A stretch of 64,000 bases of DNA from Candidatus Zixiibacteriota bacterium (GCA_043819555.1 JBDREQ010000076.1:1-64000); one strand, 5' to 3'. Shown: positions 51,482 through 57,798, counted from the first letter of the stretch. Notes: generated by a model not told the origin, from the sequence alone. Made by a program: numbers and translations.

Positions 51482-52930
51482 TCATTCAGGATAACAAATA
51501 TCCAGCGTTTTGGTCGCTTTAACTTCGTCAAGACGCCTGACCGGCGTATTATGCGGTGCCTCTCTTACAAGGTCCGGATCACTGTCAATTTCTTTGTCAA
51601 TTTGAAGCATCACGTCCGCAAAATAATCCAGCGTTTCTTTTGACTCCGTTTCGGTCGGTTCAATCATAATCGCCTCTGGAACAATAAGCGGAAAATAAAT
51701 CGTCGGCGCATGAAGCCCAAAATCAAGAAGACGCTTGGCGATATCGGCGGTTCGTATGCCCCGCTTTTTCTGCCTGTTTCCCGAGAGAACAAATTCGTGC
51801 TGGCAAATACCATTAAACGGTACTTCAAACGCGTCTTTCAGCCGTTCCTTAAGATAATTGGCATTGAGAACGGCATTTTCCGACACGCGTTTCACGCCGA
51901 GCGGGCCAAGATGCCTCAAATAAGTATAGGCGCGAACCATATTGGCGAAATTGCCGTAGAATGAATGCATTCTGCCAATGCTCTCCGGGCGATCATAATC
52001 AAGAAAATATTTCCCGTCTTTTTTGGTTATAATCGGTTTGGGCAAAAATGGAATCAACTCATCGGTCACAGCCAATGCCCCGGCACCGGGACCGCCTCCG
52101 CCGTGTGGAGTAGATAGCGTCTTATGCAAATTATAATGGACAATGTCAAAACCCATATCGGCTGGACGAGATTGGCCCATTAGCGCGTTGAGATTGGCGC
52201 CGTCCATATAAAGCATACCGCCGGCCGCATGAACAACTTTTGCTATTTTCTCAATTTCAGTCTCGAACAACCCCAGAGTATTAGGATTGGTAATCATTAT
52301 CCCGGCCGTTTCCTTATCCATAACCTCGGCAATATGCTCAGCCGAAATAATGCCTTTATCCGAAGAACTGAACTGGTTCACCTGATACCCGGATAATATT
52401 ACTGAGGCCGGATTAGTTCCATGAGCAGAATCGGGAATCAAAATTTTCTTCCGGACATCTCCCCGCTTTTTCATTGCCGCCCGTATCAGAAGCAATCCCA
52501 TTAATTCACAGTGAGCCCCGGCCACTGGTTGCAATGTTGCTTGCTTAAATCCGGTTATTGTCGCCAGCATCTCAGCAAGTTCATACATCAATCGCAAGGC
52601 TCCCTGACATTCCTCAATCGGCGCTAATGGATGTAATTTCGAGAAACCATGCAATCCGGCCATGGCATCATTGACTTTTGGGTTATATTTCATCGTGCAT
52701 GAACCCAACGGATAGAATCCCTTGTCGATATGATGATTGCGAGTGGACAATTCTATATAATGACGCACCAGTTCCGGCTCAGATATTTCAGGCAATCCCG
52801 AAGCGTCCTGACGACGGTATTTCTCCGGGATTAATCCGGTTACTTTATCCACACCCGATTTCAATTCCGGCAGGGAAAAACCCGACCTGCCTGATCGGGA
52901 TTTTTCATAAATTAAAATATCTTTGTTCAT
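51482..52930 (-). CDS. gcvPB: Glycine dehydrogenase subunit 2
   Basis: PLGSCTMKYNP, HGTNPAS, NLHKTLSTPHGGGGPG. Confidence 0.96.
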   Translation of the reverse strand: MNKDILIYEKSRSGRSGFSLPELKSGVDKVTGLIPEKYRRQDASGLPEISEPELVRHYIELSTRNHHIDKGFYPLGSCTMKYNPKVNDAMAGLHGFSKLHPLAPIEECQGALRLMYELAEMLATITGFKQATLQPVAGAHCELMGLLLIRAAMKKRGDVRKKILIPDSAHGTNPASVILSGYQVNQFSSSDKGIISAEHIAEVMDKETAGIMITNPNTLGLFETEIEKIAKVVHAAGGMLYMDGANLNALMGQSRPADMGFDIVHYNLHKTLSTPHGGGGPGAGALAVTDELIPFLPKPIITKKDGKYFLDYDRPESIGRMHSFYGNFANMVRAYTYLRHLGPLGVKRVSENAVLNANYLKERLKDAFEVPFNGICQHEFVLSGNRQKKRGIRTADIAKRLLDFGLHAPTIYFPLIVPEAIMIEPTETESKETLDYFADVMLQIDKEIDSDPDLVREAPHNTPVRRLDEVKATKTLDICYPE

Positions 52931-52940
52931 ATTATTTTGA

Positions 52941-53903
52941 TCAGCTGCCTTCGGTTTCCTCCGGAGGATTTTCTATTTCTTCGATTTGTTCTTTAACCCA
53001 GTTTGCGTCTCCGGAATCAGGGTGCTTTTCCAAAAATTCTTTGAATAAAAGCAAGGCCTTATCATTATCGCCCTTTTGCTTGAGGCAATACGGAATATAA
53101 ACCATGGCGTCCAAAATCAATTCTGAATCGGGGTATTCCTTCATAAAGGTCTCAAATGCGGCTATAGCCTCATCATATTTTTCCGCCCGCGATTTTGTCG
53201 TCGCGATAGAAAAAACGGCATCATCAACCAATTCAGACTCAGGATATGTGGTCTGCAATTTCTGAAAAGCCTCTTCGGCCCCGGCATACTGTTTGGCCCG
53301 TTTTTTCATCTGACCCAAATTATACAGGGCACTGTCGGAATAACCATCCTTGTTGGTGGGATCGCCCTGTAATATCTTGCGATAGAAAGTTTCAGCATCG
53401 GTATAGGCGCTGCGGCTGGTATATTTTTCAGCGATTTTGTTATACAATTGCATGGTCGGCGCTGTTTCAGCCTGTTGTAGATAATCTCCCAGGGTATTTT
53501 TGTTCATCAAATAATCATTGACGGTCTGGATGAAATCTTCGGGAGGAGCATAACCCCAAATCCGATCAATTTCGGTTCCATCAGCATTGGCAATTATCTC
53601 GCTTGGATAACCACTAATGCCATAATGTTGAGCCAGGGTAGTATCTTCCCAGCCGTTAACTTTAACGGCCACGAGCTTAGAACTTATCAATTCAATAACT
53701 TCATCGTTTCGATACGTCACGGTATCGAGGACATGGCACCATGGTCATTTGACTCGCCAAAAAGATATTAAGACTTTCTTTCCCTGTTCGTTGGCTGCCT
53801 TAAGCGCATTATCATAAGAATCGACGAATTTAACTTCATTGGCGGCGCTTATACCGGCAAACGCAAATAACACCAAAAGTACAGCCAATACGGCTTTCTT
53901 CAT
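52941..53903 (-). CDS. Exported thioredoxin-fold + TPR selenoprotein, 320 aa, Sec at codon 53 (U-P-W-C)
   Basis: ATG 53903 after GAGG; signal peptide MKKAVLAVLLVLFAFAGISAA; Trx lead-in YDNALKAANEQGKKVLISFWRVK-TGA-PWC in frame with ORF 52941-53720; GYPS cis-Pro loop; TPR repeats. Confidence 0.85.
53709..53728 (-). promoter_or_regulatory. Candidate bacterial SECIS element
   Basis: Perfect 7-bp stem TCGATAC/GTATCGA with loop CGTGAC, 16 nt after the in-frame UGA (53745-53747). Confidence 0.72.
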
Positions 53904-53920
53904 GTTGTCCTCACTTTTGT

Positions 53921-54310
53921 TTAGTTTATATCTATAAATCTTGCTTTATTCCAATCGTCACCAAGAATTACTTCGCCCTCGTGCATAGCATCTTCGATAA
54001 ATTCTTCCGGGACGAGAATAGTATAGCCTCCCCCAACCGAACGTGAGGAAGATATACCCATTTGACCGGTGGCTCCAAAATGTCCCGCCCCTGAAATCAT
54101 TACCACCGGTATGTCCTTTGCTTTTAATCCCTCAATCACCATATAGGCAAGTTGATCACTGAGTAATCTCACCAGAGGAGTCCAATTATCGTAATCCAGT
54201 TCATTTTCTTCATCTTTTACTGGCAAAGAATCAACCAATTTGGCTTCGCAATCGGGACATTCGCCGATTCCCCACTCATATTCATATTTACATTTGGGAC
54301 AAAACGGCAT
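53921..54310 (-). CDS. Zinc-ribbon + DUF2007-like (putative signal-transducing) protein
   Basis: MPFCPKC...CPDC followed by LKAKDIP...ILVPEE. Confidence 0.75.
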   Translation of the reverse strand: MPFCPKCKYEYEWGIGECPDCEAKLVDSLPVKDEENELDYDNWTPLVRLLSDQLAYMVIEGLKAKDIPVVMISGAGHFGATGQMGISSSRSVGGGYTILVPEEFIEDAMHEGEVILGDDWNKARFIDIN

Positions 54311-54314
54311 AGAA

Positions 54315-54638
54315 CTACCCTTCATCCTCTTCAGATGTCTCTTGCTTGCTATCAAGGAATATCTTAACCAATTCCGATGCCTCGGCTTCATATTCGCCCG
54401 GTACCATAATCTTAAACATTTCTACTTTTCCCGAATATAAAGATCTTAATGGCAACCCAGCCGACCCAAATACTCCCGGCTTTGTATCTAATACTGCGGG
54501 GATATCATAGGACTTCAAACCATTCACAGCAAATTCAGCGGTCATACGATCGGGTGCTTCCGCTACTACAACCCAATTAGTTCTGATCTCAGAATTCTCA
54601 TAGAGTTCTTCGTTTATGTTATTATTTTCCGGTTCCAT
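54315..54638 (-). CDS. DUF2007-like (putative signal-transducing) protein
   Basis: WVVV...AEFAVNGLKSYDIP...IMVPGEYEAEA. Confidence 0.7.
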   Translation of the reverse strand: MEPENNNINEELYENSEIRTNWVVVAEAPDRMTAEFAVNGLKSYDIPAVLDTKPGVFGSAGLPLRSLYSGKVEMFKIMVPGEYEAEASELVKIFLDSKQETSEEDEG

Positions 54639-56004
54639 CTCGTATTGAAGCCTTTGCAGGTTTCTCCTCACTATTTATGTGTGACAACACCTCAACTAAT
54701 GCGTCGCAATCCCCAAAACTATTCATCTCTGTAACAGCCAAAAGCAAATGATTGTTCAAATCGGGATAAAAAATACTCAGATCAATCCCGGCTCCAAAAC
54801 CCTTAGCATTGGCGAGTTCAAGTATTTGCCCGGCGGGGGCATTGGTTTCTACTACAAATTCTTTGAAAAACGGCTTCTCATTCCAAACTCGATATCCTTT
54901 GATTTGAGAGATTTTATCGGCTAGATAATGGGCCCGCTCGGTTGATATTTGAGCAACTCGCCGGATACCGTGCCTGCCCATCAGCGACATATAAATCGTC
55001 GCCGCTGTTGCGCATAAGGCTTCGTTGGTGCAAATATTCGAAGTCGCTTTATCACGCCGAATATGCTGCTCTCGCGTTTGGAGCGTTAAAACAAATCCGG
55101 ATTTTCCATCAACATCAGTCGTTCGAGCCGCCAGTCTTCCGGGGATTTTTCGAACAAACTCCTTACGGCAGGCAAATAATCCAAGAAGCGGCCCACCGAA
55201 ATTTTGCGGAATGCCAAATGACTGCCCCTCGCCAACGGCAATGTCGGCATTGTATTCGGCCGGGGTCTTTAATATCCCAAGTGAAATTGGGTCGAAGACA
55301 TTGACGAACAGTCCCCCGGCATCATGAATTGCCTTTTCTCCCCGCTCTATATCCTCAAGATATCCAAAGAAATTCGGCTGACCCAAGATTAAGCAGGCAC
55401 ATTGGTCATCTATAAATTCGTTTAAGATATTGTAATCCGTCGAACCATTGGCATATGGGACAGTGACTATTTCCAAATCCATCCCCTGAATCGACGTTTT
55501 CAATACATCCCGATATATCGGATTGATCGTTTCAGAAATCACAATTTTATTTCGCCGCGTGTGGTTAACGGCCAAAAGAGCCGCTTCGGTCACAGCCGTT
55601 GCCCCATCATAAAGCGAGGCGTTGGCAACATCCAATCCGGTCAGGCGGCATATATGAGTCTGGAACTCATAAATAACCTGAAGCGTTCCCTGCGCGACTT
55701 CGGCCTGATACGGCGTATAGGCTGTCATAAATTCAGGACGCATTGCCAGCGACCAGACTACCGGTGGAATAAAATGATTATAAATTCCGGCCCCAATAAA
55801 ATTAGTTTTACAGGTGTTATTCCTGCCAGCCATCTCTTCCAGATGGCGAACAAGTTCCGGCTCGCTTAAAGCCGGCGGCAATTCGAGCGGTTTCTTCAAA
55901 CGCAATTTTTCAGGAACCGCGGCGAATAAATCAGCGGTTTTAGAAACCCCGATTGATTTAAGCATGGCCTTTATATCATCGGGGCTATTGGGTATGTATA
56001 CCAT
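54622..56004 (-). CDS. gcvPA: Glycine dehydrogenase subunit 1
   Basis: TAYTPYQAE, NASLYDGA, TREQHIRRDKATSNIC. Confidence 0.96.
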   Translation of the reverse strand: MVYIPNSPDDIKAMLKSIGVSKTADLFAAVPEKLRLKKPLELPPALSEPELVRHLEEMAGRNNTCKTNFIGAGIYNHFIPPVVWSLAMRPEFMTAYTPYQAEVAQGTLQVIYEFQTHICRLTGLDVANASLYDGATAVTEAALLAVNHTRRNKIVISETINPIYRDVLKTSIQGMDLEIVTVPYANGSTDYNILNEFIDDQCACLILGQPNFFGYLEDIERGEKAIHDAGGLFVNVFDPISLGILKTPAEYNADIAVGEGQSFGIPQNFGGPLLGLFACRKEFVRKIPGRLAARTTDVDGKSGFVLTLQTREQHIRRDKATSNICTNEALCATAATIYMSLMGRHGIRRVAQISTERAHYLADKISQIKGYRVWNEKPFFKEFVVETNAPAGQILELANAKGFGAGIDLSIFYPDLNNHLLLAVTEMNSFGDCDALVEVLSHINSEEKPAKASIRDGTGK

Positions 56005-56011
56005 AGGCAGT

Positions 56012-56392
56012 TTATTCCGTAATCAATTCTTTGTATTGGTGCGCGCTTAATAAGCTGTCAATTTCTTCAGGTTTTGACATTTTAACTTTAATCATCCAGC
56101 CCTGACCATACGGATCCTTGTTGATAATCCCAGCATCTTCTTCAATCATATCATTTACGGCTCCAACCGTACCGCTGACAGGCGAGAACATTTCCGAAAC
56201 CGCTTTTACAGCTTCAATAGTGCCAAAAGCTTCCATTTTTTTTACATCGCTTCCGATGTTCGGAAGCTCGACAAAAACTATATCTCCCAACTCCCCCTGG
56301 GCAAAATCTGTGATTCCGATTTCGGCCTCGTCATCTTTAATGCGGACCCACTCATGTTCTTTTGTATACTTTAATTCTTCAGGAATATTCAC
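56012..56392 (-). CDS. gcvH: Glycine cleavage system H protein
   Basis: YTKEHEW, GITDFAQ, EAVKAVS lipoyl Lys; GTG start after GGAGG. Confidence 0.96.
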   Translation of the reverse strand: MNIPEELKYTKEHEWVRIKDDEAEIGITDFAQGELGDIVFVELPNIGSDVKKMEAFGTIEAVKAVSEMFSPVSGTVGAVNDMIEEDAGIINKDPYGQGWMIKVKMSKPEEIDSLLSAHQYKELITE

Positions 56393-56412
56393 ATAACCTC
56401 CCAATAATATCA

Positions 56413-57798
56413 TCAAGACGTCTGCTTGGTTTTATCCTTTTTCTTCAATCCGGCTTCCTTACTCAAATGCTTCTCGATAAACGAAGTGTCAAAATGTCCT
56501 GATACAAAATCAGGTTGCGTCAAAATTAATTTATGGAAATCAATTGTGGTTGCCACGCCTTCCACAATAAATTCATCCAATGCCGTCAACGTTTTTACAA
56601 TCGCATGCTGCCGGTCATTACCCTTAACAATCAGCTTGCCAATCATTGAATCGTAAAACGGGGGAATAATATATTGACCGTACGCATGAGTATCTACTCG
56701 TACGCCATGTCCCCCCGGCTGATGAAATGTAGTAATTTTTCCCGGAGATGGTCTGAAACCATTTTGAGGATCCTCGGCATTTATCCTGCATTCAATTACA
56801 TGACCCCGAAAGTTGACATCTTCCTGGCGCAATTCCAGCCTCTCTCCCGAAGCGATTTTTATCTGTTCGGCGACGATATCAATTCCGGTCAACTCCTCGG
56901 TCACTGGATGTTCCACCTGGATCCGAGTATTCATTTCCATGAAATAAAATTGGCCATTATTATCGACCAAAAACTCAATCGTTCCGGCGCCTCGATATCC
57001 GACCGAGGCGGCTCCTTTAATCGCGGCCTCACCCATTCGGCGGCGCAAGTCGGCATCGACAATTGGTGAAGGTGATTCTTCCAGTAATTTTTGATGGCGC
57101 CGCTGAACGGAGCAATCACGCTCCCCCAAATGAACGATATTGCCATAATTATCGCCGAGAATCTGCATTTCAACATGATGCGGTTCAAATACGACTCTCT
57201 CTATATATAATGCCCCGTCATTAAAGGCCGCCTCGGCTTCGGCTCGCGCCATATTAAATGCCGTTTCCAGTTCTTCCGGTGCCCTGGCGATTCTCATTCC
57301 CCGACCGCCGCCGCCGGCGGATGCTTTAATTAAAACCGGGTAACCGACCTGTTCGGCAATACGAGCCGCTTCGTCTATACTATGTATCAAGCCATCGGAA
57401 CCGGGAATCGTCGGAACTCCAGCCTTCTGCATCAATTCTTTGGCCTTGGCCTTGGCGCCCATTTGACGAATCATCTGGCCGCTTGGCCCGATAAAGGTGA
57501 TATTGCATTCTTCACAAATTTCAGCGAATTCGGCATTTTCTGCCAAAAAACCATATCCCGGATGGATAGCTTCCGCATTTGTTACTTCGGCCGCGGCAAT
57601 GATTCGTTTGGGATCCAGATAAGATTCAAGGGCCTGCGGTGGGCCAATGCATACATCTTCGTCAGCAAAGCGCACATGCAGTGAATCGGCATCAGCTTCG
57701 GAATACACCGCCACCGTCTTGATTCCAAGGTGTTGACAGGCGCGTATTATCCTGAGCGCGATTTCGCCCCTGTTAGCTACTAATATTTTTTTAAACAA
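56413..57798 (-). CDS. accC: Acetyl-CoA carboxylase biotin carboxylase
   Basis: [34 protein letters not shown]. Confidence 0.96.

Follow-up and report, generated by a model that had tools for sequence, protein, structure and literature searches.

We report a gene that very probably encodes a 320-aa exported protein containing selenocysteine (Sec), in which a thioredoxin domain is followed by a tetratricopeptide repeat (TPR) domain. The gene lies on the minus strand at 52941..53903 of a 64,000-nt stretch of DNA from Candidatus Zixiibacteriota bacterium (GCA_043819555.1 JBDREQ010000076.1:1-64000), the whole of which was analysed and is referred to below as the window. In this reading the UGA at codon 53 would be decoded as Sec by means of a selenocysteine insertion sequence (SECIS) hairpin within the gene, whose stem starts 16 nt downstream of the UGA and which would recruit SelB with Sec-tRNA(Sec), whereas the terminal UGA, which has no such hairpin, would stop translation. 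The product would be exported via an N-terminal signal peptide and would consist of a thioredoxin-fold domain with a nucleophilic Sec (U-P-W-C) and then a YbgF/BamD-like TPR domain. We infer its redox function, which would be that of a thiol-disulfide oxidoreductase outside the cytoplasm, one that most likely reduces or isomerises and is plausibly kept reduced through the DsbD or CcdA of the same genome. The TPR module would serve for binding substrate proteins or for docking on an envelope machine, and the product as a whole would be an exported analogue of the cytoplasmic thioredoxin-TPR chaperedoxin CnoX/YbbN.

The gene consists of 320 codons and a TGA stop (52943-52941) with one internal TGA. 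A ribosome-binding site, GAGGA, can be read from the sequence 4 nt 5' of the ATG (53908..53912), and the frame opened by this ATG (53903-53901) begins with MKKAVLAVLLVLFAFAGISAANE. Its N-terminus, MKKAVLAVLLVLFAFAGISA followed by ANE, resembles a signal peptide, with residues 1-21 (53841..53903) as the predicted peptide and an AxA-type site between ISA and AN. After 52 sense codons the frame meets the internal TGA (codon 53, 53745..53747) at the first position of the U-P-W-C motif (context FWRVK-U-PWC) and runs unshifted past it into a 259-aa open reading frame (ORF). The read-through product is 320 aa long and the corresponding protein match spans residues 1-320 with the single internal TGA. 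In standard ORF calling the shortened 259-aa "TPR protein" starts at a GTG (53718..53720), which is 61 codons downstream of the ATG and sits within the apical loop of the SECIS hairpin. A preliminary description of this DNA had proposed the same ATG, ribosome-binding site, signal-type N-terminus, internal TGA and 259-aa ORF, with the TGA at the first position of the thioredoxin CxxC, and each of these elements was recovered here, the active-site position in the translated frame. It had also held that standard gene callers would shorten the gene, which is what has happened to the database homologs described below.

The pairing of Sec with cysteine at codon 53 is the first line of evidence for recoding. 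Of 53 relatives found in a database search, 28 are, like the window's own ORF, 248-262 aa long and represent only the part after the TGA. These short homologs are labelled as TPR protein, BamD or TolA-binding protein, the closest being assigned to "candidate division Zixibacteria". In all 13 full-length database homologs a Cys is aligned with the TGA, and C53, W55 and C56 are invariant (C-x-W-C). A six-frame search found the gene in 275/285 genomes of the same phylum (Zixibacteria, going by the labels of the homologs). Among the 30 best phylum loci codon 53 is TGA in 21 and TGT or TGC in 9, and a further 20 loci, picked for being flagged as TGA-containing, have TGA at the motif in 19 cases and TGC in one. 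Pooling these gives 50 orthologous loci with TGA in 40, TGT or TGC in 10 and no other residue at this codon, so that homologs lacking both Cys and Sec, the outcome named in the preliminary description as damaging to its proposal, were found neither here nor among the 13 database proteins. Approximately 81 of the 150 phylum matches listed contain a TGA by hand count. The Trp preceding the active site (W-C-x-x-C) is kept in 9/10 Cys-form loci and 13/13 Cys database homologs and in only 18/40 Sec-form loci, where K, D, T, S or G replaces it (K in the window), counts which come from loci that are not phylogenetically independent.

The part of the gene upstream of the TGA behaves as coding sequence. 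An ATG and a hydrophobic signal-type N-terminus precede codon 53 in 30/30 orthologs, several of which have a lipobox Cys in place of the AxA-type site. Compared with the congener G151 (82% identity), 22 of 34 differences upstream of the TGA and 101 of 146 downstream fall at third positions. Coding constraint is thus at work on both sides of the TGA. Sequencing error was considered as a source of the TGA and rejected, because the same TGA recurs in 40 independent genome assemblies.

The second line of evidence is the hairpin itself (UCGAUAC-CGUGAC-GUAUCGA, 53709..53728, minus strand), which covers codons 59-65 (LDTVTYR). Its 5' arm UCGAUAC (53728-53722) and 3' arm GUAUCGA (53715-53709) form a perfect 7-bp stem beginning 16 nt past the TGA, around the loop CGUGAC (53721-53716) with G at loop position 2 followed by U, and the minimum-energy fold also recovers it. 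The published bacterial SECIS model (PMC13188914) has a loop of 3-9 nt on a stem of 4-16 bp, G within loop positions 1-2, a distance of 16-37 nt between UGA and loop and a minimum free energy (MFE) of -7.5 kcal/mol or lower. With a 6-nt loop, a 7-bp stem and 23-nt spacing the window hairpin fits this geometry; the bare helix has an energy of -7.0 kcal/mol, and in a 30-nt context the value is -8.0 kcal/mol. The hairpin of the preliminary description (7 bp, 16 nt downstream, G at loop position 2) thus stands and fits the published model. An equally stable hairpin of SECIS type arose in only 20/5000 uniform and 28/5000 usage-weighted synonymous recodings of the 20 downstream residues, and the hairpin is therefore beyond what chance would give. 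A scan of 53500-53950 against Rfam at E <= 10 returned no SECIS family, only chance-level matches to the patAB leader and SNORD43.

Codon use in orthologs points the same way. Orthologs in other genomes have this TGA, frame and hairpin too, and in the Sec orthologs of the window's own family, 12 genes sharing 44-82% amino-acid identity, codons 59-64 are identical in 12/12 and codon 65 in 11/12. Elsewhere in the gene 1 of 56 invariant degenerate residues shows such codon freezing (Fisher p = 7e-7, in a test where related genomes are not independent). Judged from this freezing, the hairpin is under constraint at the RNA level. Across the 50 loci an uninterrupted hairpin of the model type with an energy of -4 kcal/mol or better is present in 33/40 Sec loci compared with 3/10 Cys loci. 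Other clades have different hairpins at the same place, for example ACGCU-UGGAU-AGCGU, which suggests several SECIS classes within one protein family. Among loci L051-L070 we also noted one hairpin, at spacing 20, in which a GGA triloop closes a 10-bp stem, a second with a GGUC loop at spacing 23 and a third type, GGCGGA-CUCGAC-UCUGCC, without G at loop positions 1-2.

The genome has the machinery to decode the codon. The search for Sec genes called for in the preliminary description returned tRNA-Sec (74.3 bits; anticodon tca by ARAGORN), selA (485.7 bits), an adjoining selB (322.4 bits) and selD (389.4 bits), all above curated cut-offs. The selD gene (L018:1480-2460 = G000:C63:76059-76982, minus strand) itself has an in-frame TGA in GAGUASK, which makes its product a Sec-containing selenophosphate synthetase, and selA is present in 264/285 genomes of the phylum. 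A global code change with TGA as a sense codon was rejected, as TGA ends 10/35 long ORFs in the window and also this gene. The same genome has a second candidate selenoprotein, similar in build and 397 aa long (L076:1417-2610, plus strand = G000:C31 ~90087-91280) with a signal-type N-terminus, the motif LLLEFYRDD-U-EYC, TPR-like helices and sub-threshold matches to Thioredoxin_7 and Thioredoxin_2.

The read-through protein has the two domains in a clear order. The thioredoxin-fold domain (residues ~24-135, 53499..53834, minus strand) is recognised by Pfam, by a structural model and by fold matches. Thioredoxin_2 (PF13098) matches residues 37-126 at 45.7 bits (cut-off 27), Thioredox_DsbH (DsbH/DUF255) residues 20-94 at 43.9 bits (cut-off 27) and Thioredoxin_7 residues 27-87 at 34.7 bits; with Thioredoxin, which also matches, the thioredoxin-type models together span residues 20-129. 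The TPR domain (residues ~138-311, 10 helices, 52971..53492, minus strand) is matched by Pfam TPR_6 and YfiO over residues 189-305 (YfiO 50.3, cut-off 25), by NCBIfam models below their cut-offs, by PDB sequences and by fold. An AlphaFold (AF2) model built on a 40-sequence alignment reached a mean predicted local distance difference test score (pLDDT) of 93.7 and a predicted template modelling score (pTM) of 0.86, with low pLDDT over residues 1-20. It contains a thioredoxin fold at residues 26-132 and ten TPR helices over residues 138-311, and residue 53 is at the N-terminus of the helix 54-61. The model thus places residue 53 at the nucleophilic position of the CxxC motif. Foldseek searches by domain gave the YbgF TPR domain (2xev, TMt 0.80), DsbD-gamma (1uc7, 0.74), DsbH (2ju5, 0.71) and thioredoxins (~0.8), and a PDB sequence search gave CpoB (6g5s) at 5e-9, in agreement with the fold matches. 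The same genome encodes a CcdA-like protein and, in a frame of 647 aa, a DsbD_TM protein (195.6 bits), either of which could deliver electrons to an exported thioredoxin-like protein. As the best reading of the function we infer an exported thiol-disulfide oxidoreductase that reduces or isomerises and whose TPR module serves for client binding or docking. The preliminary description had named an exported thioredoxin with a CpoB/BamD-like TPR scaffold; Pfam, NCBIfam, PDB and fold searches agree with that architecture, as a resemblance and not as membership of those families, and its assertion of a redox function went further than the evidence.

Could the TGA simply be a stop? The gene would then be a decayed thioredoxin-TPR gene, or would be two genes, one for a 52-aa signal-peptide fragment and the other for a TPR protein of 259 aa that begins with GTG 53720. 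Standard calling does give exactly this 52-aa/259-aa split, 28 database homologs have been called likewise and TGA is an ordinary stop in this genome. The split would, however, run through the active site of the thioredoxin fold and place the GTG start inside the hairpin loop. The TGA is moreover kept at the same codon in 40/50 loci across lineages that are ~30-57% identical, the upstream part is under coding constraint and Cys replaces the TGA exactly in other loci. A pseudogene would not retain 320 open codons in ~275 genomes, and the pseudogene version was rejected as the TGA recurs in many of them. We regard a true stop as extremely improbable. Hardly more credible is read-through with an amino acid other than Sec, either by near-cognate Trp or Cys insertion or under a local recoding signal unrelated to SelB. 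The persistence of the hairpin in two Cys-form genes is in keeping with a signal of this kind. Against it, homologs show Cys at this codon, a residue chemically analogous to Sec, and in no case Trp, Gly or Arg, the full Sec machinery including a Sec-type selD is present, and the geometry of the hairpin suits the SelB-dependent model. The position is also that of the redox-active first Cys of CxxC, typical of selenoproteins (PMC13188914, Table 1). Several observations nevertheless weigh against Sec insertion directed by the hairpin. The bare hairpin, at -7.0 kcal/mol, narrowly misses the -7.5 threshold unless flanking bases are counted, and 7/40 Sec loci have no uninterrupted hairpin of the model type, these seven still forming stem-loops without G at loop positions 1-2. 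The 81-nt region folds no better than its shuffles (z = -0.89), only the local hairpin being distinct, and the 60 nt that follow the codon do not, by total MFE, separate Sec from Cys genes; because both of these measures were uninformative the local-hairpin and synonymous-site tests were adopted. Within the family the hairpin is invariant in sequence and so gives no covariation support. Finally the Cys orthologs L032 (G146) and L047 (G201), with TGT at the codon, keep the exact hairpin of their Sec sisters. This fits an interpretation of these hairpins as SECIS remnants after recent switches from Sec to Cys, and it also allows a role of the hairpin unrelated to Sec.

Sec insertion being the preferred reading of the codon, the function of the product has an alternative of its own. 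The protein could be a dedicated maturation factor and not a general chaperedoxin-like reductase, for instance one that joins an apocytochrome c thioreductase to a chaperone module of TPR type (compare CcmG and CcmI), or else an oxidising catalyst like DsbA. Exported thioredoxin-like and TPR proteins are known to cooperate in cytochrome c maturation, and near-universal presence in the phylum (275/285 genomes) would fit a housekeeping role. No CcmG, ResA, CcmI or DsbA model is among the NCBIfam and Pfam matches, though, the best matches being thioredoxin domains of the DsbD-gamma/DsbH type and TPRs of the YbgF/BamD type, and the neighbouring genes are glycine-cleavage (gcv) genes with no cytochrome maturation genes nearby. 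We consider such a role unlikely, if far less so than either alternative for the codon. The reducing or isomerising oxidoreductase that we favour has evidence against it as well. All NCBIfam matches (ybgF, BamD, the TsoB selenoprotein C-terminus and DsbD) are below their cut-offs, so that no curated NCBIfam model covers the protein. The likeness to CnoX is architectural only (16% identity, template modelling (TM) score 0.27-0.31), the low global TM arising because the domains are oriented differently. An envelope redox role also does not explain the fixed place of the gene between gcvPA and gcvPB.

The gene is part of a tight minus-strand run (51482-56416) consisting of gcvH, gcvPA, a 118-aa protein, a 156-aa zinc-ribbon protein, the thioredoxin-TPR gene and gcvPB. 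Directly downstream, after a 10-nt gap, lies gcvPB (51482..52930, minus strand), and directly upstream is the gene for the 156-aa protein (53921..54391, minus strand). Further upstream in the same operon-like run are the gene for the 118-aa small protein (54315-54671, minus strand) and gcvPA (54622..56004, minus strand). Neither small protein has a Pfam family at E <= 0.001. The 156-aa protein begins with a CPxC...CPxC zinc-ribbon-like motif, and the two appear to be related, as both queries match the same stretch of L032; taken from their first start codons their ORFs overlap by 77 nt. In 30 orthologous loci (L021-L050) gcvPB adjoins the gene in 28, gcvPA in 27 and both in 26, the exceptions being mostly contig ends. 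In a public genome collection, which was scanned by pattern and with a bias towards Cys forms, and from which 80 loci of more distant relatives were kept, gcvPB or the small upstream proteins were within the 600-nt flanks in 6 loci and absent in 74. The six linked loci are the top-ranked ones, four labelled Zixibacteria, one Ignavibacteriales and one "uncultured bacterium".

Beyond the phylum the same collection contains thioredoxin(+TPR) relatives in records labelled Ignavibacteria, Bacteroidetes, Calditrichaceae, Planctomycetes, Brachyspira and others. At the motif 54 of the 80 loci have TGT or TGC and 7 have TGA, while in 19 the motif was not found by the pattern. TGA stands at the same active-site position in L101 and L117, two public records of which one bears the label Candidatus Neomarinimicrobiota and the other "uncultured bacterium", and Sec forms may thus extend beyond Zixibacteria. 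When short stand-alone relatives were sought for the thioredoxin part (residues 20-135), nothing turned up but the 52-aa fragment of the window itself. In the ESM Atlas the natural Cys homolog P0006 retrieved look-alike thioredoxin-TPR clusters of ~276-303 aa, labelled mostly Acidobacteriota and Spirochaetota, which are leads only. A tree of 44 of the 50 phylum genes (six of the second batch were left out by the extraction filter) requires at least 5 changes between Sec and Cys, with the two Cys genes of the window's family branching from within Sec genes. We tentatively propose, with somewhat more doubt than conviction, that the window's gene is the first member to be recognised of an uncatalogued family of exported "seleno-chaperedoxin" (Sec-thioredoxin and TPR), a near-universal core gene of the phylum that is locked in place between gcvPA and gcvPB, has undergone at least 5 Sec/Cys switches and has clade-specific SECIS elements. 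If this is true the gcv linkage could tie its expression or role to glycine and one-carbon metabolism and not to general envelope redox upkeep.

An inventory of 119 prokaryotic selenoprotein families (2026, PMC13188914) does not have the words "TPR", "tetratricopeptide" or "Zixibacteria" in its text, nor is "TPR" present in that of a 2006 survey (PMC1794560), and a term search gave no TPR form in a 2022 selenoprotein review. As far as these sources were searched, none of the selenoprotein families they catalogue is described with a TPR domain. Full-text searches of the papers available gave none on this protein, which supplementary tables of surveys might list, and a literature search gave no paper on an exported form of CnoX. 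The decoding mechanism is entirely standard and leaves the understanding of Sec decoding unchanged, and thioredoxin-fold UxxC proteins are the commonest kind of prokaryotic selenoprotein. The features that are the protein's own are its TPR fusion, its export signal and its phylum-wide gcv linkage. As to the consequences, dozens of public records are shortened and mislabelled as TPR, BamD or TolA-binding proteins, and since every NCBIfam score is below its cut-off the selenoprotein will go on being overlooked by annotation pipelines. With a family model the records could be put right throughout a phylum in which 264/285 genomes have selA. The protein itself would bring an exported thioredoxin-TPR architecture into the selenoprotein catalogue. 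As a natural series, the Sec/Cys switches with their clade-specific SECIS elements, and with remnants of these in Cys genes, would be useful for studying how a SECIS originates inside coding sequence.

Among known selenoproteins a close counterpart is the "thiol:disulfide interchange protein" family (PF13098, UxxC; PMC13188914, Table 1), with which the protein shares the best-scoring thioredoxin domain of Pfam and a UxxC with Sec first. Such a selenoprotein is reported in Geobacter and Syntrophus in PMC1794560. The catalogued members are deltaproteobacterial, and "TPR" is absent from both papers. The Trx7/PDZ (seleno)protein NF041199 likewise joins a Thioredoxin_7 selenoprotein of exported type to a module for protein binding (same table), but has CxxU in place of UxxC and PDZ in place of TPR, and its model scores 21.3 against 300. 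The reductase domains DsbD-gamma and DsbH resemble the thioredoxin part in fold, in C/U-x-W-C spacing and in their extracytoplasmic setting. The window protein differs in lacking a membrane domain and in its additional TPR domain, and the NCBIfam models for DsbD (34.6 against 330) and DsbH (20.4 against 190) score far below their cut-offs. CpoB/YbgF and BamD (6g5s, 2xev, 3qky) have the same TPR subtype, YbgF superposing with a root-mean-square deviation of 2.4 over 119 columns. In the window protein, however, a thioredoxin domain replaces the N-terminal part of CpoB, and both ybgF (TIGR02795, 65.7 against 90.1) and BamD (TIGR03302, 50.2 against 81.4) are below their cut-offs. In overall plan the closest likeness is to the chaperedoxin CnoX/YbbN, which also has an N-terminal thioredoxin fold and then a C-terminal TPR domain, and E. 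coli YbbN/CnoX and its Salmonella homolog (3qou, 3qdn) are the best full-length Foldseek matches (E = 3e-8). CnoX is cytoplasmic and lacks a signal peptide, whereas the window protein would have Sec in its active site and has a signal-type N-terminus that it shares with all 30 orthologs.

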